Shown: positions 5,881-56,246, counted from the stretch's first letter. The stretch is 56,246 bases of DNA from a virus (IMGVR_UViG_3300021335_000019:1-56246), one strand, 5' to 3'. Notes: a model not told the origin generated them from the letters alone. A program made the numbers and translations.

Positions 5881-6167
5881 CAGATTGCGCTCCCCTTGCT
5901 GGCTTTGTAGGCGTCTTGCTGCAATTCACGGCAACGGTCAAACGTAGCCACCATGATCGCCTTTGCTGCGATGTCGAAGCCAGCCTCTTTAATCTCATCA
6001 CTCCAATGGCTATTGTCGCGGAGCGCTTGCCGCAACGCTTTAGGGAAGCCAACGCCCATGGCGTAATACTCGCATTCAGATTGCGCGACGGACTCTGCCC
6101 ATAACGGCAACGCTCGCGATGGTGTGGCCACTGCTAAGGCAGCAGCGGCAATGATCAATGCTCTCAT
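5880..6167 (-). CDS. Small protein with signal-peptide-like N-terminus
   Basis: Start moved to ATG 6167: MRALIIAAAALAVATPSRA hydrophobic leader. Confidence 0.6.
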   Translation of the reverse strand: MRALIIAAAALAVATPSRALPLWAESVAQSECEYYAMGVGFPKALRQALRDNSHWSDEIKEAGFDIAAKAIMVATFDRCRELQQDAYKASKGSAI

Positions 6168-44931: not shown

Positions 44932-45154
44932 GGGTTGGGCTCAATGGATGATCGTTGAACTCCCGGTTGAGGAGCAACTCACCCTAGAGAAGCAAGCACG
45001 GACGCCATTGCATCAAGGCAGCAGCGATCAAATCCGGCAGTTGTGCTCAAGCCTGATCCGTCAAAATCACCATCAGCAAAAGCTACTGAAGCAAGCCACT
45101 GGCCGGATCATTGAACTTGAAGCAATGGCAGCGTGCCTTGACATTCAAACGTAG
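44930..45154 (+). CDS. Small helical hypothetical protein (MGWAQWMIVELPVEEQL...)
   Basis: Start moved to ATG 44930. Confidence 0.55.
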   Translation: MGWAQWMIVELPVEEQLTLEKQARTPLHQGSSDQIRQLCSSLIRQNHHQQKLLKQATGRIIELEAMAACLDIQT

Positions 45155-46016
45155 CTGTCTTACCTAATGCGCGCCTAATCTTGATAAATGCGCGATCACG
45201 GCGCTGTCTGATGCGTTCGCGCGATACATTATGCTGCTGCGCAATCTTCCTTAATGTCGTCGGTTCATTATCAAACAATCCAAAGTATTTTACGATGATG
45301 TCTCGATCGAAGTCGTCCAGTTGGTCACAGGCAAAATAAAGCCCGGCTTGCCGCTTTTTATCATTGACATCATCGTACAAATCCTCACTATCGGATAACA
45401 TATCAACAAGCGGCGATCCATCTTCTTTGGTAAGTGCATCAAGGCTGGTGTGCATTGTTGAGCGTTCCATGATTAACCGCAGATCACTTGGCTTCATGTC
45501 CATGATCTCGGCTACTTGATCTAGTGTTGGCAGCACACCATGAGCCTGCCTGTATTCGTTTTTGATCTTGAATGCACGGTTAACTTTCTCCAGCGCATTG
45601 GTTGGTATTCTTACAGCACGGTCATACGATTCAATTCCGCGATTCATCGCTTGTCTGATCCACCAATAGGCATAGGTGCTGAACTTATAGCCGCGTGCAC
45701 CATCAAACAGCTCCGCTGCGCGTTGCAATCCGACCGTACCTTCTTGAATCAAATCCATGTGATCCATGGCAGCGCCACGGATTCGTGGTGCAAAAGTACG
45801 GCTTACATGCACCACAAGTCTGAGGTTGCATTTGACCAGCTCCTCACGCGCGCGAAGCCCAGATCTAATCTCACGGCGTTCAGTATTGGTCGGGTTAGGC
45901 TTATCACGCAGATCCTGCCAACGCTTGACGCGCCTGGACAGCTTGATCTCTTGATCCGTGGTCAGCAGTGGATACTTGCCGATCGCATTAAGATAATCGC
46001 GCATTACCTCAGGCAT
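45108..46016 (-). CDS. RNA polymerase sigma70-family (RpoD-like) factor
   Basis: DYLNAIGKYPLLT (1.2), NLRLVV, DLIQEG, GYKFSTYAYWWIRQ (2.3-2.4), VSRERIRQ (4.2). Confidence 0.93.
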   Translation of the reverse strand: MPEVMRDYLNAIGKYPLLTTDQEIKLSRRVKRWQDLRDKPNPTNTERREIRSGLRAREELVKCNLRLVVHVSRTFAPRIRGAAMDHMDLIQEGTVGLQRAAELFDGARGYKFSTYAYWWIRQAMNRGIESYDRAVRIPTNALEKVNRAFKIKNEYRQAHGVLPTLDQVAEIMDMKPSDLRLIMERSTMHTSLDALTKEDGSPLVDMLSDSEDLYDDVNDKKRQAGLYFACDQLDDFDRDIIVKYFGLFDNEPTTLRKIAQQHNVSRERIRQRRDRAFIKIRRALGKTATFECQGTLPLLQVQ

Positions 46017-46045
46017 CAGTGGGTGGTGGGGAAGACCGGCGAATC

Positions 46046-46354
46046 TTAGCACTGATCTTGGTGCAACCACAACCAAATAGTGCCTTCAGCTTCAGCGGTC
46101 CAGAACGGTTGCAGCCGGAACCACGCTACCCAGTCATCAGATCCCTTGCGTGAGTTGCAGTTTGCGCAGCAGCTTATCAAGTTCGCTCGGTCAGTGTGTC
46201 CGCCTTTGCTGCGTGGCCTGACGTGATCCAGCGTTGTCGCTGGATTGCCGCAGTAAGCGCAGCGGTGTTCCCATGCTTCGAGTATCGATTGCCTGAATTG
46301 ACGCTTAGCGTGACGACGTGGCACAAGGTAGCAGCCATCGATGCAGTGATCCAC
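46046..46354 (-). CDS. HNH endonuclease
   Basis: CAYCG...TLDHVRPRSKGG...NLISCCANCNSRKG. Confidence 0.88.
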   Translation of the reverse strand: MDHCIDGCYLVPRRHAKRQFRQSILEAWEHRCAYCGNPATTLDHVRPRSKGGHTDRANLISCCANCNSRKGSDDWVAWFRLQPFWTAEAEGTIWLWLHQDQC

Positions 46355-47506
46355 CTAATCAGTAAGGATGGGCGCTGAAATCGTGAATCCTCGCTCTGAG
46401 TCGATGCAACGGAGCAGCTGCTGCGGACGTTCTGGCGCAAAACCCAATTTCATGCCATACGGCGTAGCGCCGATCAGGGAGCCGTTGACTGACCAGTTCT
46501 GGCCCATCGTCAGCTGATGGAAGTGACCCATAAAGGTATGGTCAGCCTTAATGCCTTGGTCTTGGCGGTAAATCCATTTTTGCAGCGGTATGGTAATGCC
46601 TCCAACACCGCCGCCATACCTGATGGCGTCACCATGGTGGAAGCGGAGGCGGTGATTCATCACGTTGACGTAATGAATGTTGCCGTCACTGATGTCGAAT
46701 GTGATGCGGGGTTCTTTGCGGTAGTGGCGGGCGAGGGATTTGTACATCAGCCACTCGTAACTGGTGGCCGCGGCATTGCCCGCTCGCATCTTGTCGGTGG
46801 TACGGCCATGGTTCCCGAAGGAGCAGGGCACGATGATCTGCTCAAAGTCGCCATGCTCTAGGAGATGATCAAGGCCAGCAACGATGGCGCGCTCACATTC
46901 GATGAGCTGCTGCGTCGGGCTCAAGATTTGCGTCTCAACCTGATCAGGATGCAGCCAGTTGTCGATCAGATCACCACCAAGCCAGATGATGCAACGGCGC
47001 ACCTCGGCTGCGCTGCGCAGCATCCGTACAACCCGCAGTGTGTTGCGGAACAGAGCGCCGGCACGTTCGTGGAAGATGTCTACGTCGTAGCGGTTCAGGC
47101 CGCAGACCGTCGCAGGATCCACCACAGCGCCGCAGTGCCAATCTGAGCACAGCAGCAGCGGCACTGTTTCGCTGCGTTGACCTGTGGTGTCTACAACAAG
47201 CGATGCAGGTTGTTCAATGTCACGGATCTCCAGTGCCGTAGCCAGCTGCTCTTGCAGGCTTTCAACTTTGCTTAGCAGCCTGTCTTGATCACTGATTTGG
47301 CCGCGCACCTGTTCCCGTAATCGACGGTTCTCTATCTGCAGCTGCGTTAGTGCCTCTTGCGTGTCGCCCTTGCCTTTGGGGCAATGCCCAGACTTGCAGT
47401 ACAATTCACCGCTGTTCTCGTCGCGGTAGAGCAGATCAGCAGGCAGCTTCTCACGGCAACGACGCAACCGGCGGCAGGTGAACTTCAGCTGTTCGACTGC
47501 CGCCAT
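46355..47506 (-). CDS. Calcineurin-like metallophosphoesterase with N-terminal Cys-rich and coiled-coil regions
   Basis: SDWH, GGDLID, GNHGR, HHGD, GHFH motifs. Confidence 0.85.
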   Translation of the reverse strand: MAAVEQLKFTCRRLRRCREKLPADLLYRDENSGELYCKSGHCPKGKGDTQEALTQLQIENRRLREQVRGQISDQDRLLSKVESLQEQLATALEIRDIEQPASLVVDTTGQRSETVPLLLCSDWHCGAVVDPATVCGLNRYDVDIFHERAGALFRNTLRVVRMLRSAAEVRRCIIWLGGDLIDNWLHPDQVETQILSPTQQLIECERAIVAGLDHLLEHGDFEQIIVPCSFGNHGRTTDKMRAGNAAATSYEWLMYKSLARHYRKEPRITFDISDGNIHYVNVMNHRLRFHHGDAIRYGGGVGGITIPLQKWIYRQDQGIKADHTFMGHFHQLTMGQNWSVNGSLIGATPYGMKLGFAPERPQQLLRCIDSERGFTISAPILTD

Positions 47507-47639
47507 ACGATGCGGTTCAGTGCCCTCACTATAGAAGAAATGGGGTCAAGGCGTCGCAGCTTGGCTGCTTACTCTTGTTTCGCCAATTCGCCAAGAGTCA
47601 AAATCGGCGGCAATGGCACTGCTTGAGCTTATGCACTGG

Positions 47640-47828
47640 CTATACCGAGTTTTGTGCATTTAGGAAACGAGCGAATGCACCAGGGCGTGGTTTGAAGCTG
47701 CGACGGTAGGTTTTGTTGGTGTTTGAGATGTAGAGTTTGCGGCCATTATCGGTGATGATGTATTTAGCACCGCGGGGGCTGATGTGTACTTCGCGGTTGC
47801 CGATATACTTTTCAGAGATGGTTGCCAT
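47640..47828 (-). CDS. Cassette-array mini-gene (MATISEKYIG...)
   Basis: Start moved to ATG 47828 after GGAGAACAACTG. Confidence 0.65.
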   Translation of the reverse strand: MATISEKYIGNREVHISPRGAKYIITDNGRKLYISNTNKTYRRSFKPRPGAFARFLNAQNSV

Positions 47829-47884
47829 CAGTTGTTCTCCGGTGTGGTGGTGGTGGGGCGCATTGCTTTTTTGAGTCAGTTGCA

Positions 47885-48154
47885 CTAAGTGAGCCGGCCA
47901 TACGGCTTGTCATCGCTAAGGTCGTCGGCATCTACGGTTTCGATGTCCTTCCATTCGCCGCCGGATTTGAATCCCTGACTCCATGTGAAATAGCCCTGGA
48001 GCTTCAGATGGACTTGACCTTCGTCGGTTCGGAAGCGCACCAGGCGGTAAATGTCAGGAATGTTTTTTTCAATCCTGGCTGCATCGATGTGCACTGGTCC
48101 AGACGGAATGAATATCTCATCTGTGCTCCAGCTGATGGGGCGTTGGTCAGTCAT
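47885..48154 (-). CDS. Cassette-array mini-gene (MTDQRP...)
   Basis: Shared N-terminal motif. Confidence 0.7.
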   Translation of the reverse strand: MTDQRPISWSTDEIFIPSGPVHIDAARIEKNIPDIYRLVRFRTDEGQVHLKLQGYFTWSQGFKSGGEWKDIETVDADDLSDDKPYGRLT

Positions 48155-48416
48155 TGTGCTTAATCAGAGGTTGATAGGTCATCTCAAAGATGTCAGGCTT
48201 GCAAGGATAGAACTCACCCTTCACGCCTTTGATAATCCAGTCGCCAATCCGGGCTTGATGGTCACCTTCAAGGGTTTGGATTACCAGTGGTGGGATACAC
48301 CTCGTTCGATAGCAATACTTGCCATTGGATTTAATCCAAGCGATGATCTCGTCAAGATTGTCCTTGGTCAGTTGCCGCGCCTCAATGACGACTGGCTTTT
48401 TCTGGAAAAATGGCAT
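48147..48416 (-). CDS. Cassette-array mini-gene of a widespread phage family (KKPVVIEA...TLEG...GDWIIKGVKGEFYPCKPDIF)
   Basis: Recognisable motif; flanked by junction repeats. Confidence 0.8.
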   Translation of the reverse strand: MPFFQKKPVVIEARQLTKDNLDEIIAWIKSNGKYCYRTRCIPPLVIQTLEGDHQARIGDWIIKGVKGEFYPCKPDIFEMTYQPLIKHND

Positions 48417-48670
48417 CAGTTGTTCTCCGGTGTGGTGGTGGTGGGGCGCATAGCTTCTCGAAGGTTTCCAACAACGTAATCAACGCCCCGTTGTTCCAGG
48501 TCCAAGTTGTGGCGCAACCACTCAATCACCTGCTCCAACTGCCAATCAGCAGCGGCACGCATGATTCGTCGAGTAGATGGACAGGGTTCTTGCCACTTGA
48601 GCCAGTTGTCTTTGTTGTCTTGCCAGATTTGGCAGCAAAGGTCGACAGTCAGTGGGTGTTGTTCAGTCAT
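48416..48670 (-). CDS. Constant/variable family mini-gene, copy A
   Basis: MTEQHPLT...MRAAADWQLEQVIEWL...AMRPTTTTPENN. Confidence 0.75.
   Translation of the reverse strand: MTEQHPLTVDLCCQIWQDNKDNWLKWQEPCPSTRRIMRAAADWQLEQVIEWLRHNLDLEQRGVDYVVGNLREAMRPTTTTPENN
48518..48563. repeat. 46-bp core repeat, identical at 50389-50434 and 50990-51035; partial copy at 49060-49089
   Basis: CCACTCAATCACCTGCTCCAACTGCCAATCAGCAGCGGCACGCATG. Confidence 0.9.
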
Positions 48671-48924
48671 CAGTCGTCCTCCAGTTGATGGACTGCTTCG
48701 AGTAGTTGCCACTTGAGGGCACCTTCTTTGATCAAGCGCTCAAGTTTCTCCCTGGGGGTTTCAGCAAATTGCCATTCGCGTCCGTTGATGGTGCCAAAGA
48801 CATCCCACCTGACATCGCCCCAGACATTGCATTTGACGTGCTTAACACGCCATGCTCCCTCGATAAACTCAAAATCAACAAGTTTGAGGGCTTCTTCGAG
48901 TGGGATTTGGTTTTGTTCAGTCAT
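48670..48924 (-). CDS. Cassette-array mini-gene (EEALKLV...ETPREKL family), copy 1
   Basis: Paralogue of 50096-50284. Confidence 0.75.
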   Translation of the reverse strand: MTEQNQIPLEEALKLVDFEFIEGAWRVKHVKCNVWGDVRWDVFGTINGREWQFAETPREKLERLIKEGALKWQLLEAVHQLEDD

Positions 48925-49298
48925 CAGTTGTCCTCCTGTTGTTGTGGGCGTAGTTCTTGCATAACTTCTTTGAAAAAGTCTTCACATGCGTCTGCCCCGG
49001 CGACGTATCCCTGTATACGCCACTCGTTGAGCTTCAGCTCTACCTTTCTCATTACTTCTTCCAACTGCCAGTCAGCAGCGGCACGCATGTCTTGTCTAAA
49101 GATTGAAATGGGATAGTCGTAGCAGAGGCTGTCTTCATAGAGATCAGAGATCTCTTCGATGGCCTCATCAGTCAGTGGGTGTTGGTTGGTCATTGGGGTT
49201 CTCCTCATGTAGTTGGCGTAATGTCTCATCATGCTGTTGGCGTAAAGCTCTTGGTGGAATTCGCAGAGTTTGTCAGTCAGTGGGTGTTGGTTAGTCAT
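48924..49298 (-). CDS. Constant/variable family mini-gene, copy B (duplicated N-terminal motif)
   Basis: MTNQHPLTD occurs twice; MRAAADWQLE core. Confidence 0.7.
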   Translation of the reverse strand: MTNQHPLTDKLCEFHQELYANSMMRHYANYMRRTPMTNQHPLTDEAIEEISDLYEDSLCYDYPISIFRQDMRAAADWQLEEVMRKVELKLNEWRIQGYVAGADACEDFFKEVMQELRPQQQEDN

Positions 49299-49528
49299 CA
49301 GTTGTCCTCCTGTGTGGTGGTTTTGTAAAGAATAGGGGCATAACTGTTGTCAACAGGTTTAGTGGTCAGATGAGTACCTCCGCAATGAGGACATCGATAA
49401 ACTGAATAATTTTTGCCATGCTTTTTAGCGAACTTGTCTGCCGATTGCTTGTAAGTCTTGTTGCCAAGGTTTGCTTTGCCTTGGCACCCACGCTCAAAAG
49501 ATGGTTGTCGGTCAGTGTCAGTGGTCAT
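49298..49528 (-). CDS. Cassette-array mini-gene with zinc-finger motif
   Basis: C...YRCPHCGGTHLT; ends TTTQEDN. Confidence 0.7.
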   Translation of the reverse strand: MTTDTDRQPSFERGCQGKANLGNKTYKQSADKFAKKHGKNYSVYRCPHCGGTHLTTKPVDNSYAPILYKTTTQEDN

Positions 49529-50037
49529 GGTGTCTCCTGTGTGGTGGGCTCCGGTATCGGTAGGGCGTAGTGGGGGAGCACATGGGTCCAGCAAACCCAA
49601 GCCTCTGGACGGTCGAATGACCAGAAGGGATCTGTATCGTCCGCGTCAAAGCACCAACACCAACCATTGTTGTCACACCACCCCTCACGCTCCCAGGGCC
49701 TCTCGCTTACCGGGATTGGCTGGACAGCAGGGCGGCCCCAGCGGGCGCGATCAGCGGCAATGACAGCGCGGGCGAAAGACAGCACGTCGTCTCTCATGTT
49801 TGCGCCTGCCTGTAACGGATAAATCACGCCCCCGTCGCACATGGTGTAGGAAACTTGATGCTCTTGAGACAGGTCAAGAATCTCCTCATCCGTGAGTTCC
49901 TCCGGCTCGGGCTGGGAGAGGTAGGCGTAAGCTTCGTCAATTAGTGCCGACTGATTGGGGACGTTGTACTGGCAGTGCAAGAGATCCAGCTTCTCAGCCA
50001 GCCGCTGGATCAGGTTGCGTGGGTGTTGGTCAGTCAT
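49525..50037 (-). CDS. Cassette-array gene (MTDQHP...PIPVSER...THVLPHYALP)
   Basis: Shared N- and C-terminal motifs. Confidence 0.7.
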   Translation of the reverse strand: MTDQHPRNLIQRLAEKLDLLHCQYNVPNQSALIDEAYAYLSQPEPEELTDEEILDLSQEHQVSYTMCDGGVIYPLQAGANMRDDVLSFARAVIAADRARWGRPAVQPIPVSERPWEREGWCDNNGWCWCFDADDTDPFWSFDRPEAWVCWTHVLPHYALPIPEPTTQETP

Positions 50038-50063
50038 CTAAATGTTGAACGAAGTGTACATTG

Positions 50064-50089
50064 AAGAAGAAAGCCGCTGGTAAGCGGCT
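50064..50089 (-). terminator. Putative terminator inside the array
   Basis: Minus strand AGCCGCT-TACC-AGCGGCT-TTCTTCTT. Confidence 0.5.
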
Positions 50090-50095
50090 AGGTCT

Positions 50096-50284
50096 TCAGT
50101 TGTCCTCCAGTTGATTCAATGCTTCGAGTAGTTGTGACTTGTGGGCACCTTCTTCAATTAGGCGCTTGAGTTTCTCCCTGGGGGTTTCAACGTACTGGTA
50201 TCTACAACCGTTGATTGTCCCATAAACATGCCCTTCAACAAGTTTCAGAGCCTCTTCAAATGTGATTCGGTTTTGGTCAGTCAT
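50096..50284 (-). CDS. Cassette-array mini-gene (EEALKLV...ETPREKL family), copy 2
   Basis: Paralogue of 48670-48924 with a shorter middle. Confidence 0.75.
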   Translation of the reverse strand: MTDQNRITFEEALKLVEGHVYGTINGCRYQYVETPREKLKRLIEEGAHKSQLLEALNQLEDN

Positions 50285-50517
50285 TTGTTGTTCTCCTGTG
50301 TGGTGGTGGGGCGCATTGCTTTTTCAAGTTCTTCGGGGATGTTTACCGCTTCTAAGCTGCTGCCACGCTCGAAGATTGTTTCGTTAAGCCACTCAATCAC
50401 CTGCTCCAACTGCCAATCAGCAGCGGCACGCATGCAGTCATAAGCGGCAGGATGTCGCACAGGCCAAGGAGCAATCTCTTCGCAGATCTTGCTAGTAAGT
50501 GGGTGTTGTTTACTCAT
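50281..50517 (-). CDS. Constant/variable family mini-gene, copy C
   Basis: MSKQHPLT...MRAAADWQLEQVIEWL...KAMRPTTTQENNK. Confidence 0.75.
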   Translation of the reverse strand: MSKQHPLTSKICEEIAPWPVRHPAAYDCMRAAADWQLEQVIEWLNETIFERGSSLEAVNIPEELEKAMRPTTTQENNK

Positions 50518-50852
50518 CAGTTGTTCTCCTGTTGATGTTGTTGTGTTTGAAGTAGCATCGTGCGGAACTGATTTTCCATAACCTCCCTTTCCATAACCTC
50601 CCTTTGCACAACGTCCAAGAGCTGCTTATCTGTCAAGCAGTGAAACTCTGCCGAGTACCTAATCATATCAGTCTCCATATCTTCGGTTTCTGTAATCTCT
50701 ACCTGCTTAAGGATTTGTGTGGCGATATCGTGCGCTAGTTCTGACTTGATTTGCTGGGTAAAAAATTCAGGACAGAGTGCGTTCATTATTTTTTTGCGTG
50801 AGACTAGAGTAGACGCACTGATCAAGGTTTTGTCAGTTCGCAGGCGTATCAT
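50517..50852 (-). CDS. Cassette-array gene, unrelated body ending QQENN
   Basis: Junction repeats on both sides. Confidence 0.7.
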   Translation of the reverse strand: MIRLRTDKTLISASTLVSRKKIMNALCPEFFTQQIKSELAHDIATQILKQVEITETEDMETDMIRYSAEFHCLTDKQLLDVVQREVMEREVMENQFRTMLLQTQQHQQENN

Positions 50853-51127
50853 TGGTTGTTCTCCTGTGTGGTGGTGGGGCGCATTGCTTTTTTGAGGTCG
50901 TCAATAAACGCTTCCGTGAGAAAATAAGTGATGTAATAATCTTCCATTACGTAATCTTCCATTAAGTAATCTTCAGTATTAGTTTTTAACCACTCAATCA
51001 CCTGCTCCAACTGCCAATCAGCAGCGGCACGCATGTCTTCTTCGTCGTACCAACGACTTGTGTACTCTCCAGAGAAATTGAACGTTTTGCCAATTACTTC
51101 GTCAGTCAGTGGGTGTTGGTCAGTCAT
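50849..51127 (-). CDS. Constant/variable family mini-gene, copy D
   Basis: Start moved to ATG 51127: MTDQHPLT...MRAAADWQLEQVIEWL...KAMRPTTTQENNQ. Confidence 0.75.
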   Translation of the reverse strand: MTDQHPLTDEVIGKTFNFSGEYTSRWYDEEDMRAAADWQLEQVIEWLKTNTEDYLMEDYVMEDYYITYFLTEAFIDDLKKAMRPTTTQENNQ

Positions 51128-51513
51128 TAGGAAGTGCCTCCAGTGCGCGGCGGATGGCAGAAGCGGTAAGTATTGAACCGTTAGCTCCGTGCAGCTCATT
51201 CAGGATTGTCTCCAGTTCCGACAGCGCCAGGTCTTTTCAAGCTCGGCGGCTTGGGTCGGCGGGCGGCGCGGAGTGCATTGATGTAGTCGGTCGGCGTCTC
51301 GTCCGCCATCCACTCACAACACGCCTCCAGCTCTTCATCACGGGCCTGCTGCAGCTCGGCCTCATTGACCTCGCCGCGCTGCTCGTAGCCCCATTGGGCA
51401 GCGTGATAGGCAACTTGTTCGGTAATGCTGCAGTAATCTTGAGACCGTGCTTCAGTCATCCATTTAGCTATCAGCTCAGGCGGTGGGGTGATGGGGTGCT
51501 GTTGTTCAGTCAT
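51120..51513 (-). pseudogene. Cassette-array gene (MTEQQHPITPPPEL...) with an apparent one-base frameshift at 51234-51237
   Basis: Zero frame stops at 51196; skipping one A gives PSLK-DLALSEL...IRRALEALPND*, overlapping the next ATG like other cassettes. Confidence 0.6.
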
Positions 51514-51641
51514 TGGTTGTTCTCCTGTGATTCGAGTTTCCGCAGCTCAGCGCGGATGTTTGCAGCCATGAACTTGTTGCCATGGCGTTCTGCGATCTCA
51601 AGCGCCTTCAGGTAGCGCTCGCGGCGGGAGGGTTCAGTCAT
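51510..51641 (-). CDS. First cassette-array mini-gene (43 aa, MTEPSRRERY...SQENNQ)
   Basis: Manual translation; ATGA overlaps at both ends. Confidence 0.65.
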   Translation of the reverse strand: MTEPSRRERYLKALEIAERHGNKFMAANIRAELRKLESQENNQ

Positions 51642-52270
51642 GCCCATGCGGCCTCCGCAATGACGGGAAACTGCGCCGTAAAGATTTCACGGCACTGCTC
51701 AGCCAGTCGGCGATGCTCCAGCTGCGTCTCCTCACTGGCACGAATCTGAATGTAATGAATCCAACTACGCAACGTACCAGTCATATACATCGAAGTCGGC
51801 GTACACATCGGCAGGATGCGCCTGGCCGTTTCTTTGGCCACACCCCTCTCAAGCATCTGATCATAAAGAAAGAAGCTGTCGGCAATCAACCGCCCAGCTT
51901 TCTTTTGCAACTCATCCTGGTGCGTGGGGTGAATGTCATTGATGCTGTTCTGCCGGTTATCAAGGTCTTGCCGCCTAAACCATGGAATCTCAGCAGGCTT
52001 GGTCTTGGCGTAACGAGTCGAAAACTCCTGAAAGCTAAACGAACGATGCCGCAAGATCTGAGCGGCGATGTCGCGTTCGGTTTCGATCAGGACGCACAAC
52101 GACGCCATCTCGAACGGCGACCAGTGCTTGTGCTTAATCAGGTAACGCAGCAACCGAGGACCGGTTTTCCAGTTCTCGTCATTGCTGGGATTGCTGACGC
52201 GAGCCATCTTGACGATGAGTCGCTCAGCATCAGGCGTGCAATGCACGAAGCGGACATGTTTAGTCATCAC
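51638..52270 (-). CDS. thyX: Flavin-dependent thymidylate synthase
   Basis: HWSPFE, QILRHRSFSFQEFSTRY signature, ETARRILP. Confidence 0.95.
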   Translation of the reverse strand: MMTKHVRFVHCTPDAERLIVKMARVSNPSNDENWKTGPRLLRYLIKHKHWSPFEMASLCVLIETERDIAAQILRHRSFSFQEFSTRYAKTKPAEIPWFRRQDLDNRQNSINDIHPTHQDELQKKAGRLIADSFFLYDQMLERGVAKETARRILPMCTPTSMYMTGTLRSWIHYIQIRASEETQLEHRRLAEQCREIFTAQFPVIAEAAWA

Positions 52271-52457
52271 GAGTTGCCTCCCAGTTGATTACGTCTTCCA
52301 GTCGATACTGCACACGCGGCTGTCGTGGGCTGCGGCCAGCACGTGCAAGTTCATGCCAGTGCGGCCCGATGCCGCGATACCGCCAGCCCTTAATGGTGGC
52401 AGGCTTCAACCCAAGCCTTGCGGCGAGTTGTTCGGTGGTCAAGAAGTCAGTCTCCAT
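52260..52457 (-). CDS. Excisionase/AlpA-like HTH DNA-binding protein
   Basis: FLTTEQLAARLGLKPATIKGWRYRGIGP...VQYRLEDV. Confidence 0.8.
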   Translation of the reverse strand: METDFLTTEQLAARLGLKPATIKGWRYRGIGPHWHELARAGRSPRQPRVQYRLEDVINWEATRDD

Positions 52458-52524
52458 GGTTGTCGTTAAAGTGTGAACGGGATAGCGCCGCAATCCTGTG
52501 GGTGGTGTGCGGCGCAAGTCCCTC

Positions 52525-52719
52525 TCAACGCGGATCGATCGGGTTGGCCGATAGCTCTAACTTGCTGATTTGCAGCTGGCTGCCGTCTTCCTTTTGGCAG
52601 ATGTAATGCGGGAATGGTGTCATCACATCTGCGCGTTCAACGATTGCAACCCATCGGCGGCGGTTGCCGTGGATGTAAACGATGTCGCCGGGCTCGAAGT
52701 CTGCGGATGGTCTAGCCAT
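52525..52719 (-). CDS. Small SH3-like hypothetical protein (MARPSADFEPGDIVYI...)
   Basis: ORF track; start uncertain. Confidence 0.5.
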   Translation of the reverse strand: MARPSADFEPGDIVYIHGNRRRWVAIVERADVMTPFPHYICQKEDGSQLQISKLELSANPIDPR

Positions 52720-52844
52720 TGGATTTTGCTCCAGTAGGGCAGCCATTCCTTAGCGACTAGCTGCTTTGCTTCGGTGAAGGATGCAGCACGCACCACTTCA
52801 AATACATTTGCTTCAGGGATCTCAAAGTAGTATTTGTTGGTCAT
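52623..52844 (-). CDS. Hypothetical protein
   Basis: ATGA overlap with the upstream gene. Confidence 0.5.
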   Translation of the reverse strand: MTNKYYFEIPEANVFEVVRAASFTEAKQLVAKEWLPYWSKIQWLDHPQTSSPATSFTSTATAADGLQSLNAQM

Positions 52845-53119
52845 GTGGCAAATCCTCTAGCGCGGGCTCGATGTGGGCTTGCAGGATCGCTGCGATTGTT
52901 ACCGTCGGCAGTAATAACAACAGGACGCGGGTGAGAACGTTCATCCGCTGGTTTCAGTAGATAGGTGTGCAGTTGCGTGAGATTGGCTGATAACCAATGG
53001 ATCATTTGCCCGCAAGTGAACCCCGCGGCATACACAAAAGCAACAGCGACAGCGATGATGCGGACGATGGATTCAATCTGACTTCCTAGTTGCTGGCTTG
53101 ATGGGATGGTGAGTTTCAT
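52841..53119 (-). CDS. Putative single-pass membrane protein
   Basis: IIAVAVAFVYAAGF hydrophobic stretch. Confidence 0.55.
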   Translation of the reverse strand: MKLTIPSSQQLGSQIESIVRIIAVAVAFVYAAGFTCGQMIHWLSANLTQLHTYLLKPADERSHPRPVVITADGNNRSDPASPHRARARGFAT

Positions 53120-53738: not shown

Positions 53739-53760
53739 GTGCCGGTTTTCAGAACGGAAT
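53739..53760 (-). promoter_or_regulatory. Pseudo-palindrome promoter element (copy 9)
   Basis: ATTCC-GTTCTGAAAACC-GGCAC, 31 nt, GATAGT. Confidence 0.55.
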
Positions 53761-54093
53761 GTCTTCGTTGCTCGGTGCTGCTGCTGCTGGCTGAGCAGAT
53801 ACGCGTGGCGGCAGCGTGAATTGATCAACGCTCAACTCAAGACTCTGGCCTTGGCTGCCGTCTTTCTTCTCATAAGTGCGCACCTTACCGCGACCTGCGA
53901 CGGTGATCGCAGATCCTTTCCGCAGGTACTGCATTGCCGTATCAGCGCGTTTGCCCCACACCTGGCAGTTGATCCATGTGGTTTCGTCTTTGCCGGTTTT
54001 GGCAGCAAGTGAGAAGTTTGCAACCTGCGATTGGCCGACATCCTTGAGCTCAGGATCCTGGCCAAGGTTGCCGTGTGCGGTGATGTTCAGCAT
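53749..54093 (-). CDS. ssb: Single-stranded DNA-binding protein
   Basis: GNLGQDPEL, TTWINCQVWGKRA, C-terminal EDIPF. Confidence 0.92.
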   Translation of the reverse strand: MLNITAHGNLGQDPELKDVGQSQVANFSLAAKTGKDETTWINCQVWGKRADTAMQYLRKGSAITVAGRGKVRTYEKKDGSQGQSLELSVDQFTLPPRVSAQPAAAAPSNEDIPF

Positions 54094-54098
54094 GGTGT

Positions 54099-54308
54099 TC
54101 AGTTCAGTGGTGTGATGCCATTGGCTTCCTCAAAAGCCAAGACGTGGGCAAGTGGATAACGAACCCGTGGCGTGCCAGCTGGTGTGCCAAAGCGCGGCAA
54201 GGTGAAGTATTGCGGACCAACGCCGCGTGTGCGTTGGTTTTTGATGGCGCTGGGTTTCAGGCCCCAGCGCTCAGCGAGTTGTTCAGTGGTCAGGTACGGT
54301 TCAGTCAT
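54099..54308 (-). CDS. Excisionase/AlpA-like HTH DNA-binding protein (paralogue of 52260-52457)
   Basis: [28 protein letters not shown]...VRYPLAHV. Confidence 0.8.
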
Positions 54309-55065
54309 CAGCAAACGGATCCTCTTCAACCTCGGTCAGTTCCTTCTCCTTGGCCATGAGCAACTCCAACAGTTGCGTCATCTGCTCATCGCTGAGATCT
54401 CCCGATCGAGCTTCCATGCGTTCCTGCAGCGCCTTGAGTCCATCGATGCTGGTAACTTTGGCGATGGCGGCTTTGCCGGCATTGAAAACCTTCTCGTCGC
54501 CTGCCGGTGCAGCCGGTGCTGGTTCAGCGGTAACGGTGACAGCTTGAACCTCCTCGACCTGATCCATCTCCTCAGAGCCGTAAACACCAGACAGATCAGC
54601 CGGGAATGCTTTACGCAATGCGAGGGCTTCGCTGCATTTGGCGATCATCGCAGCGCCCATCTTGCTCCACAAGCCTTGGCCAGCGTTGTAGTCCGCATAA
54701 CGCGCCACGCCTACGAATGGATGCTGGCTGCCCTTGCGGTGGATGATGGTCTTGGCCGCGGCGGGTGGTTTGCTGCCAAGCCAGACATCTTTCCATTCGC
54801 CATCTTCGCCGCACCAAAACGTCTCGGAACCATCAAGCTGGCCGGTGCGTTCAGCGATCGAGCGCAAGCCATCGATGCCGGCTTGGATGGTCATCTTGCC
54901 GCCACGCTTGATGGCGTAGATCTGTTTGCTAAACGGGTCGAGCCCAGTGCGTTGGCACGCATAGGCAAACATCCGCAGCTCATCAGCGCTGCAGCCTGGC
55001 GCGATCGTCGAGGCGATCAGCTGCTTTTGCTCTGGGGACCAGAGCGCAAGGGAACTAGAAGTCAT
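54301..55065 (-). CDS. bet: RecT/Bet-like single-strand annealing recombinase
   Basis: [38 protein letters not shown]. Confidence 0.9.
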
Positions 55066-55849
55066 CTGAAGTCAGTGTGTCGTGGGTGGTGGTGAATGCC
55101 CATTTGGGCAGGCTCAGTGGCTCGATGGTGTTGCTGTAACCAGGCCATTCGTTAATGGCGCGGCAATCAGCAATCATCCGCATGTTCTGCTTACGCAGCT
55201 CATTGCCGTGTTGCATGGCATCAGCATCGAGCTGATACACGCCAACGGCATACGGATAGGTCTTCTCTACTGCGATGAAGATGAACCGCTCAGCCGGTAG
55301 ACCAGCTAGGTAGTGACTGGCCTGAACATGGTAGCGGAAGGTGGCGCAGGATTTGGCGAAGCCGGCAGGTGATGCGTCGGTGGTGGTTTTGAGGTCAATC
55401 ACCGTGGCGCCATTGAGCCAATCCGGGCGGCACTTGCACCGCATTCCGGTGTCGGCATCATCCCACCAGAAGCTCTGCTCTGCCTGACCATCACGCAGCA
55501 GCTCAGCAGCGGCTTGGTGACTGCGGACAGCACCAGCCATCGCCAATGCTGCATCCATGTCAGCAGCGCTAACAGGCGTGATGCCTTTGGATTCCATCTC
55601 AGCAGCCAGTTCCTTACCGGCTTTGGTGCGGCGATCCGGCGCTAGGTCATAGCGATTGCGCAGCTCATCTGGTTCCAGCACAGCGGTGTGGACCAACGTG
55701 CCAAACAGCATTGCAGCGGTGGGTTTTACCGGCTGACGATCGGGATTCAGGTAGCGCGACCAGTAGTGATACGGCGACTTTGCCACCATGTGCAGATGGC
55801 TGGCACTGACAGCAGGGTCAGCGTGATACTCCTCATTGGTGATAATCAT
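55055..55849 (-). CDS. RecE/exonuclease VIII-like PD-(D/E)xK exonuclease
   Basis: [41 protein letters not shown]; adjacent to the recombinase. Confidence 0.88.
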
Positions 55850-56120: not shown

Positions 56121-56246
56121 TAGAGCCGGCCCAATACTCGTAGAAACTGGGCTTCTCTGCCAGGGCCTCCAGGGCGGCGGCCTCCGTTCTGAATTTGCCT
56201 GGGAGAACGTACTGGCCGCTGGCCAGTACCCAGGAGCGGCGGATTT
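56121..56246. repeat. Terminal direct repeat, right copy
   Basis: Identical to 9-134. Confidence 0.9.

Follow-up and report, generated by a model that had tools for sequence, protein, structure and literature searches.

A stereotyped coding junction between small genes of a marine cyanosiphovirus is consistent with homology-guided shuffling of cassettes and half-genes

The virus record IMGVR_UViG_3300021335_000019 (a whole IMG/VR record of 56,246 bp, rated 100% complete; this entire stretch is referred to below as the window) carries an array of 14 small open reading frames (ORFs; g01 to g14, 45-170 amino acids (aa)) that run head to tail on the minus strand, from position 51647 to 47640, with overlapping stop and start codons, and are joined by a stereotyped junction. 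The feature is real and unusually regular. The interpretation we favor, with a probability of about 0.6, is that sequence comparison reflects homology-guided shuffling, in which both whole cassettes and half-gene modules would be exchanged. The system would thus represent a translational-junction analogue of the cassette shuffling associated with the promoter-early stem-loops (PeSLs) of T4-type phages, extended to half-genes.

The junction consists of an A/C-only tail (made of ACC, ACA, CAA and CCA codons; in terms of residues, Thr, Gln, Pro and Asn), the Shine-Dalgarno (SD) sequence GGAG, a spacer RACAAC, a core CTGATGACTGA and an A/C-rich head; read along the gene strand, an A/C-rich tail and GGAGRACAAC are followed by an overlapping stop/start and the ATGACTGA head. 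The 10-mer GGAG[AG]ACAAC occurs nine times in the 56,246 bp, always on the minus strand and inside the array, and three junction patterns give 6, 5 and 5 matches at <=3 mismatches, again all on the minus strand in the array, against 0.00 expected from 100 shuffles. The array of about 14 small ORFs with shared ends and a standard SD/stop/start junction that the initial annotation had described is thus borne out. All 15 positions it named are minus-strand landmarks: 13 are start codons (47828, 48154, 48416, 48670, 48924, 49298, 49528, 50037, 50284, 50517, 50852, 51127 and 51513), 49193 is an in-frame internal head, and at 50096 lies the stop codon of a gene in which a vestigial junction has been retained. 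Both exact 38-bp pairs, 47826/48414 and 50287/50855, are present as well.

In the core CTGATGACTGA, each of the two frames not used by the ATG contains a stop, so that an upstream gene read in one of these two frames terminates at the start codon. An ORF that arrives in the third frame instead produces a fusion, as in g09, where a head-only stub (49298-49194) reads into the next gene. Because the core closes both alternative frames, in-register crossovers leave the genes intact, and it is in this form that the suggestion that any crossover between junctions preserves the genes can be retained. The 15 junction windows show an A+C content of 0.69 and a mean minimum free energy (MFE) of -5.2 kcal/mol, compared with 0.51 and -11.9 for the 38 other ORF starts of the genome and with 0.56 and -9.7 kcal/mol for random 57-mers drawn inside the array. 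Three promoter-like sites are found in the 47000-53000 region, where 4.0 are expected, and none of them is at a junction; there is one terminator-like hairpin in the region (50089-50072), and an Rfam search of 47000-52500 at E<=1 yields no match. Judging from these sequence properties, the junction very plausibly serves as an unstructured, strong-SD translational-coupling site, which would account for the shared terminal residues T, Q, H, P and N together with E/D. This role in translation is independent of recombination and is probably the primary one.

An all-against-all BLASTP comparison assigns six of the 14 genes to two paralogous families. The genes g03, g05, g09 and g11 (E 1e-8 to 1e-18) form the DWQLE family, named here after its central motif and otherwise unnamed, and g06 and g10 (E 9e-23) form the ETPREKL family. 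The g02 protein may be a distant relative of the DWQLE family (hhalign probability against the DWQLE profile 59%), and the other seven array genes match their neighbors only at 6-8 terminal residues. Hence the original description of the small ORFs as unrelated applies to these seven, which are alike only at their ends, and fails for the two families; the notion of a standard junction is qualified in the same way, given that much of the full-length likeness stems from these paralogs, which have the head and the tail in their coding sequence. A DWQLE protein consists of a head (M-T-x-Q-H-P-L-T), a variable module V1, a 16-residue center, a second variable module V2, and a tail (A-M-R-P, a T/Q run and Q-E-D/N-N). 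All four members in the array fit the family definition (HP(L/I)T in the head, R-x-x-A-D-W-Q-L in the center, A-M-R-P in the tail, about 75-100 aa).

The three constant segments of the DWQLE genes are conserved at the nucleotide level. The central segment (48516-48563 on the minus strand, with exact copies at 50389-50434 and 50988-51035) makes up an exact 46-48-bp triple in three DWQLE genes, at 48516/50389/50988, that was absent from the initial annotation. When unique DWQLE members of different loci are compared at positions where the amino acid agrees, the codon agrees too in 84.3% of the cases in the head (39% expected from the codon usage of the family, n=75 unique members), 68.5% in the center (35.5% expected, n=62) and 74.5% in the tail (32.2% expected, n=67). 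The central segment of the window is 90-100% identical over 31-63 nucleotides (nt) to copies in dozens of contigs in which the adjacent V regions are unalignable, and the contigs that contain the junction range in GC content from 0.36 to 0.55. By these comparisons, the conservation of the constant segments appears to exceed what protein or composition constraint would produce; the codon agreement and the exact repeats place the likeness of the junctions at the nucleotide level and not at the amino acid level only, as had been anticipated. An explanation through RNA structure was dropped for the central segment because it folds no better than shuffled sequences (z-scores 0.90, 0.25 and -0.61).

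The variable modules behave differently. From 218 pooled proteins (98 locus ORFs and 120 database proteins), 132 unique ones contain all three constant motifs. Among these, 118 pairs are at least 60% identical in V1 and at most 25% identical in V2, 358 pairs show the reverse, and 15 pairs are alike in both modules; in some pairs, V1 is 100% identical and V2 is unrelated. The V modules differ by replacement of whole segments and not by point changes. An example comes from a contig of another study's run that keeps the order g03-V1, g04, g05 and has 195 other letters in place of 141 nt of V2 between the center and the tail of g03. Such patterns in the aligned sequences indicate that V1 and V2 reassort almost freely between the constant segments.

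The junction is widespread beyond the window. An exact-pattern scan of viral contigs gives 12 stretches and a family scan 59 loci (denoted L with a number below), the comparison loci being chosen by the presence of a family or of the junction. Per locus, the maximum is four DWQLE genes and six strict junction 10-mers, the latter invariably on the gene strand; the window, with nine 10-mers, exceeds all of these loci. The cultured phage S-SKS1 encodes a trio of a DWQLE gene, a zinc-ribbon gene and ETPKEKL with the same junction. Across 80 strict junction sites in non-redundant loci, the upstream gene belongs to the DWQLE family at 28, to the ETPREKL family at 7 and to another family at 25, and is short or absent at 20; both neighbors lie outside the two families at 9 of the 80. 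Thus, the junction is a short boundary sequence that also occurs between non-homologous genes.

Comparison of contigs that share flanking genes reveals differences in the number, content and position of cassettes. Eight contigs (L003, L074, L090, L101, L102, L111, L112 and L124) have the same two flanking genes, with 81-99.7% identity in the flanks. Between these flanks, L090 and L124 have nothing, L111 has one DWQLE gene (and a 30-aa ORF), L101 three cassettes, L102 four, L003 seven and L074 about ten. In the closest pair, L101 and L102, the flanks are 99.7% and 99.4% identical and enclose a junction-bounded variable stretch of 315 vs 788 nt; the identity stops in the ACA-repeat of a tail and restarts 13-16 nt before the next ATG. 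A junction of L101 is a hybrid of two L003 junctions that lie 1.43 kb apart, with a 19-nt overlap, and L070 contains four cassettes (988 nt) where L069 has a single junction, with a 25-nt overlap. Further indel boundaries overlap by 26 and 54 nt. The crossover points thus fall inside shared sequence, and they are scattered over the junction rather than fixed. Furthermore, one cassette (95% nucleotide identity) is located at one site in L111 and at a second site, 3.6 kb away, in L112, which at the first site has a copy of this cassette with an in-frame internal deletion of 117 nt. Taking six groups of contigs together, 110 unique breakpoints were placed relative to the called start codons, and 53 fell in the interval -45..+25; the null distribution has a mean of 16.8 (standard deviation 3.8, maximum 32 in 1000 draws). 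The observed count is conservative because the gene caller overlooks some small genes and one group was compared in reverse orientation. Junction-to-junction joints in the run that best holds the array (e.g., 47838 to 51506 and 51526 to 47847) were rejected as evidence of deletion because their shorter side consists of about 20-40 nt of repeated junction, which is indistinguishable from the cassettes of other phages.

A recurrent larger cassette was also observed. It encodes a protein of 197-243 aa (MLT[RK]NF...) with a proline-rich alternative frame, ends in the standard tail, and is found in L074 (5240-6633, as a tandem duplicate), L003 (6603-7247), L102 (5603-6196) and L112 (503-1204).

Under the favored interpretation, a portable junction joins the genes and would do two jobs, one in translation and one in evolution. 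The A/C tail, GGAG, the fixed spacer, the frame-closing core and the A/C head would together make an almost structure-free coupling site. At the same time, genes that are otherwise unrelated have the same 20-50 nt at their ends, so that general recombination could shuffle whole genes: homologous crossovers between copies of the junction, be it in one genome or in two co-infecting phages, would delete, insert, replace or move genes, which would stay intact and coupled. The DWQLE genes would follow the same logic within a gene, with the three constant segments (head, 48-nt center and tail) flanking two reassorting variable modules. A candidate machinery is encoded nearby. A RecT protein (54301-55065 on the minus strand; PF03837, E 2.8e-31) adjoins a PD-(D/E)XK exonuclease (55055-55849 on the minus strand; DUF3799, E 1.6e-34), so that a single-strand annealing protein and a 5'-3' exonuclease are encoded together, as in RecET/Red-type modules and as the initial annotation had stated; an SSB gene (53749-54093) lies near this pair. 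Given this gene content, it is plausible that RecT, the exonuclease and SSB catalyze exchange at the junctions, and the data do not require them.

Several observations weigh against shuffling by recombination. No recombination event was directly observed, the data being assembled contigs; the comparison loci were preselected, as noted above; and the pairs in the codon and module tests are phylogenetically non-independent. In the related group of contigs, the boundaries of some indels coincide not with a translational junction but with an intergenic stretch of about 54 nt that resembles a promoter and is duplicated. Selection acting after illegitimate recombination would likewise leave breakpoints at gene starts, and selection for an unstructured, A/C-only initiation region could alone favor similar residues and codons at gene ends. 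With respect to the use of RecT and the exonuclease in particular, cassettes are found also in a fragment of a T4-like myovirus (the T4-type major capsid protein Gp23, E 1.3e-150, is present in one of five array-bearing records tested) and in records without a detected RecT (RecT was found in none of five array-bearing records, which are fragments of 35-71% completeness, so that this absence carries little weight). Finally, the array is missing from the close relatives that could be read. The protein of the adjoining Mre11-like phosphoesterase gene (46355-47506 on the minus strand) was located in 55 loci, and the upstream region was read in nine close ones with 80-94% identity (L014, L015, L016, L017, L019, L020, L024, L025 and L063); none of these nine carries DWQLE or ETPREKL genes or the junction at this site, and neither family is found at this site in the phage KBS-S-2A. 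The evidence for shuffling therefore comes from other lineages, in which arrays do differ in cassette number, content and position, with breakpoints in the junctions, and the history of the window itself has to be read from composition and scars.

The composition separates the array genes into two groups. The genes g01, g02 and g07, which have homologs in close relatives, show a GC content of 0.57-0.59, and g03, g04, g06 and g08 show 0.43-0.45, with a genome average of 0.54. In the six close relatives in which the ThyX, helix-turn-helix (HTH) or SSB marker was located, the distance from it to the Mre11-like gene is 0.5-3.1 kb. In L025, the closest relative, nucleotide homology ends about 40 nt into g02 and restarts about 28 nt before the Mre11-like gene. 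Several scars are discernible. The g02 gene carries a frameshift, and what was its tail (...IRRALEALPND) can still be read in another frame as far as the start of g03; g06 ends in an unused junction; an orphan DWQLE tail precedes g14; g07 has a 19-nt head like that of g03 that is foreign to g07 homologs; and g09 contains the head-only stub. Together, composition and scars suggest that the low-GC cassettes appear to have entered after the native g02 and after g07.

The same body of observations can be read without recombination at junctions. According to the simplest such account, two families expanded in tandem, the conserved termini are parts of the proteins, the remaining likeness comes from the SD and an A/C-rich start, and the mosaicism results from illegitimate recombination followed by selection. 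The two-family membership of six of the 14 genes agrees with this account, as does the fact that the head and tail are near-invariant columns of the family alignments; A/C-only codons and the SD account exactly for the residues of the junction, the windows of which are unstructured; MT(D/E) starts are common in relatives without an array; and ATGACTGA supplies overlapping stops. Nevertheless, exact identities of 19-48 nt and synonymous-site conservation at about twice the expectation exceed compositional convergence, and paralogy does not predict the nearly free reassortment of V1 and V2, the transfer of an orphan tail and a vestigial junction without a functional partner, or a g07 head unlike that of its own homologs. 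The overlaps at indels, 19-54 nt, are longer than microhomology and argue for homology in spite of the expectation, based on selection, that breakpoints fall at gene boundaries. We therefore regard this explanation as rather unlikely.

The other two alternatives fare worse. In one of them, the cassette order was created by an assembler that jumped between co-occurring phages at the 38-48-nt repeats. In its favor, almost all constant segments coincide with a break in the Logan contigs of the run that best holds the array, and single cassettes recur in many further contigs, both in that run and in three others. Such a chimera is nevertheless extremely improbable, given that the array in that run is tiled by unique pieces of even depth (12-18), that the exact 126-bp overlap of the record ends suggests long-k assembly with k greater than the repeats, and that similar arrays are found in many independent contigs as well as in the cultured S-SKS1. 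A dedicated, unrecognized enzyme (a site-specific recombinase, a homing nuclease or a diversifier of V modules) for which the conserved segments are the recognition site would fit the conservation of the 48-nt center at synonymous sites across phages with GC from 0.36 to 0.55, the lack of significant RNA structure in this center, and the presence of several array genes without a known function. However, no integrase or reverse transcriptase was found in the genome, no gene is common to all arrays except for the cassettes themselves, the crossover points are spread over the junction, and the V modules differ by whole-segment replacement, so that this explanation appears very improbable. Homology-guided shuffling remains the interpretation that we prefer, and the array is best explained as small accessory genes that form a hyperplastic block within the early/replication arm of the phage.

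In the direction of transcription, the array starts with g01 (51510-51647, 45 aa, GC 0.565), a native small gene with orthologs in the relatives L019, L020 and L025 (81-90% aa identity), the tail of which (...ESQENNQ) bears the first standard junction. The next gene, g02 (51196-51513, 105 aa, phrog_32006, head MTEQQHPIT), is frameshifted relative to its full-length homologs in L021 and L019, which extend to ...IRRALEALPND; the frame change is located in an A-run at about 51230-51250 on the minus strand and could be a real pseudogene, a sequencing error or a programmed shift. Three-frame translation shows the remnant of its C-terminus in another frame (51128-51195, ...AIRRALEALPND), with the stop inside the ATGACTGA head of g03. 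The g03 gene (50849-51127, 92 aa, GC 0.43) is a DWQLE gene with the complete series of head, V1, center, V2 and tail. It is followed by g04 (50517-50852, 111 aa, GC 0.435), which belongs to neither family, has a weak homolog in L074 and ends in ...QQHQQENN before a standard junction; by g05 (50281-50517, 78 aa, DWQLE); and by g06 (50096-50284, 62 aa, ETPREKL), which ends in ...NQLEDN and a vestigial GGAGGACAAC with no gene after it. All these features, and those described next, are on the minus strand. Tandem 15-nt repeats are present inside g04 (50573-50602) and g03 (50937-50966); a contig of another study's run is without one 15-nt unit at 50573, so that the copy number of the repeat varies in nature.

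The array has two gaps, a 58-nt spacer and a 56-nt orphan tail. The non-coding spacer (50038-50095), which contains the terminator-like hairpin (50089-50072) and a T-run (fold z-score -3.07), divides the array into two coupled blocks. The second block opens with g07 (49525-50037, 170 aa, GC 0.589), a native gene with no SD upstream; its first 19 nt are identical to the head of g03, and its homologs begin with MTDTERD... or MTDYRAL..., without QHP. Then come g08 (49298-49528, 76 aa, zinc-ribbon-like, phrog_15216), with the tail ...KTTTQEDN before a standard junction; g09 (48924-49298, 124 aa), in which the head-only mini-cassette is fused in frame to a DWQLE gene (49193-48924), with two heads 105 nt apart; g10 (48670-48924, 84 aa, ETPREKL); g11 (48416-48670, 84 aa, DWQLE); g12 (48147-48416, 89 aa, phrog_419), behind a standard junction; and g13 (47885-48154, 89 aa, head MTDQRP), with no family match. 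The orphan DWQLE tail (47829-47884), the equivalent of ...AMRPTTTTPENN without a gene body, is part of the 38-bp pair 47826/48414 and supplies the junction of g14 (47640-47828, 62 aa), a gene found also in L080 and L119 (89-90% aa identity) and at the end of the relative L022. Pfam and PHROGs searches with all 14 array proteins identify only the unnamed PHROGs of g02, g08 and g12, and otherwise sub-threshold noise.

The DWQLE family at large consists of uncharacterized proteins. Of 886 candidates in a database search, 674 clusters reach E<=0.001; none of them has a Pfam domain, and "hypothetical protein" is the only source name listed. A profile search retrieves 494 of 1.84 billion representatives at E<=0.001. 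S-SKS1 is the only cultured phage with a member of this family. The scan of 185,579 species genomes detects three relatives, all on contigs of metagenome-assembled genomes (MAGs) (L130, L131 and L132; labels Sansalvadorimonas, Aliivibrio and Anaerolineales), which probably derive from phages and were binned with those MAGs. In the AlphaFold2 model of g03 (mean predicted local distance difference test score, pLDDT, 82.9), a short helix is followed by a long central one, a beta-hairpin and a C-terminal helix, and the modules V1 and V2 are predicted to lie in the N-terminal helix region and the beta-hairpin; the model has no match in PDB at E<=0.001 and a single match in BFVD, the S-SKS1 homolog, so that no function can be deduced from it. 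The ETPREKL genes vary in length through a run of G-x-V-x-G-like repeats between conserved N-terminal and C-terminal parts (e.g., L011:8319-9196, L009:4839-5204 and L007:7449-7805), a run that is wholly absent from g06. A literature search with subscription journals and supplementary files outside its coverage found no account of the DWQLE family or of the junction.

The phage itself is a lytic-type, KBS-S-2A/S-CBS1-like cyanosiphovirus of marine Synechococcus. Its Mre11-like protein is 93% identical to that of KBS-S-2A and 91% identical to that of S-CBS1, both of which have marine Synechococcus hosts, and the same arm encodes a sigma-70 factor, ThyX, an HTH protein, SSB, RecT, the PD-(D/E)XK exonuclease, a dCTP deaminase, helicases and a methylase. 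The record ends in an exact 126-bp direct repeat (9-134 and 56121-56246), which is consistent with a complete circular or terminally redundant genome and a long k-mer assembly; IMG/VR classes the ends as "linear" despite this repeat. The prediction of an integrase-free system agrees with searches of the whole record, in which neither the tyrosine integrase PF00589 (a control search matched in 14 of 14 genomes) nor the reverse transcriptase PF00078 has a match. A megablast search of the array against 50,697 phage records gives a single match, 111 nt to S-H1 under g01, and the Mre11-like neighbor is found in none of five other array-bearing records, which belong to different phage types. The sigma-70 family gene (45108-46076 on the minus strand) is full-length, with regions 1.2, 2, 3 and 4, and has a GC content of 0.49 vs 0.54 for the genome; its identity is 42-52% in six close relatives and 82-90% in four others, so that it looks like another exchangeable module.

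Phage mosaicism is usually ascribed to illegitimate recombination followed by selection. To our knowledge, clear cases of a standard linker are rare, the PeSLs of T4 being the main documented one. In the present case, the linker is a coding translational junction, common to hundreds of uncharacterized small genes of ocean cyanophages, and the comparisons show signs that genes are gained, lost, replaced and translocated and that half-genes are reassorted. If true, this interpretation would explain how ORFan-rich early regions turn over fast with expression kept, would offer a rule for spotting exchangeable cassettes in viral metagenomes, and would delimit a large family of modular proteins, with variable modules that are good candidates for surfaces of host interaction; S-SKS1 on Synechococcus WH7803 is a cultured system for this idea. 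We raise as a possibility, and only tentatively, that cyanophages of different families (KBS-S-2A-like and S-SKS1-like siphoviruses and T4-like myoviruses) share this junction "grammar" as a universal adapter, with which any small gene could be taken up into any array and expressed immediately, no dedicated recombinase being needed; the DWQLE genes might then be a V1 x V2 library of early proteins, perhaps host-takeover or counter-defence binders, with synonymous conservation kept because the segments serve as crossover sites.

Among known systems, integrons resemble the array in having promoterless small genes in one orientation, in variable number and order, and with standard ends. Unlike an integron, the window has no IntI (no PF00589 match), no attI and no hairpin site of the attC type (the mean MFE of the junction windows is the -5.2 kcal/mol given above, and the sole hairpin is the terminator-like one at 50089-50072); integron genes are separated by attC whereas the array genes are translationally coupled, and exchange would proceed by general homology. 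A diversity-generating retroelement is not indicated either, given the lack of a PF00078 match and the whole-segment replacement of V modules. For the gp38 adhesins of the T4 superfamily, it has reportedly been suggested that glycine-rich motifs mediate exchange. These genes resemble DWQLE in their modular organization, with conserved motifs between variable segments (available parts of PMC3157838), but gp38 is a virion adhesin of known function, whereas DWQLE, an early protein of about 85 aa, combines two variable modules with three segments conserved at the nucleotide level.

Closer parallels are the short conserved boundary ("linker") sequences proposed to explain lambdoid mosaicism, with a case of about 50 bp in the mycobacteriophages Island3 and Brujita; in Island3, two neighboring genes share, at the nucleotide level, the sequence for their 18 C-terminal residues (PMC3029335, as far as its available text goes). 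As at the junction, homologous recombination at short sequences shared by gene boundaries would join unrelated modules (PMC3029335), but the window has one standardized junction, repeated nine times in one genome and found across many contigs of different phage types. The closest precedent is the shuffling mediated by PeSLs, which, according to the available parts of the two reports (Arbiol et al. 2010, PMC2839356; Comeau et al. 2014, PMC4122927), are intergenic units of about 100 bp with a sigma-70 promoter and a terminator that underlie modular shuffling of cassettes in T4-type phages, mini-circles having been shown. On this partial view of the sources, both systems place short conserved expression signals repeatedly between small non-essential ORFan genes in hyperplastic regions, and in both the indels and replacements between close relatives are bounded by repeats, homologous recombination being proposed without a site-specific recombinase. 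Repeats that flank ORFans and bound indels are found here in related contigs and not in the phage's own lineage. A PeSL-like arrangement was also observed in the siphovirus-like contig group, in which the promoter-like stretch of about 54 nt stands on both sides of inserted DWQLE/ETPKEKL cassettes at the second site (L090:4946-4988 and 5936-5979; also in L112 and L124; single in L111). At the junctions of the window, no promoter-like site or stem-loop terminator accompanies each repeat; instead, the repeat is a coding sequence of about 30-55 nt made up of a C-terminal tail, an SD, an overlapping stop/start and an N-terminal head.

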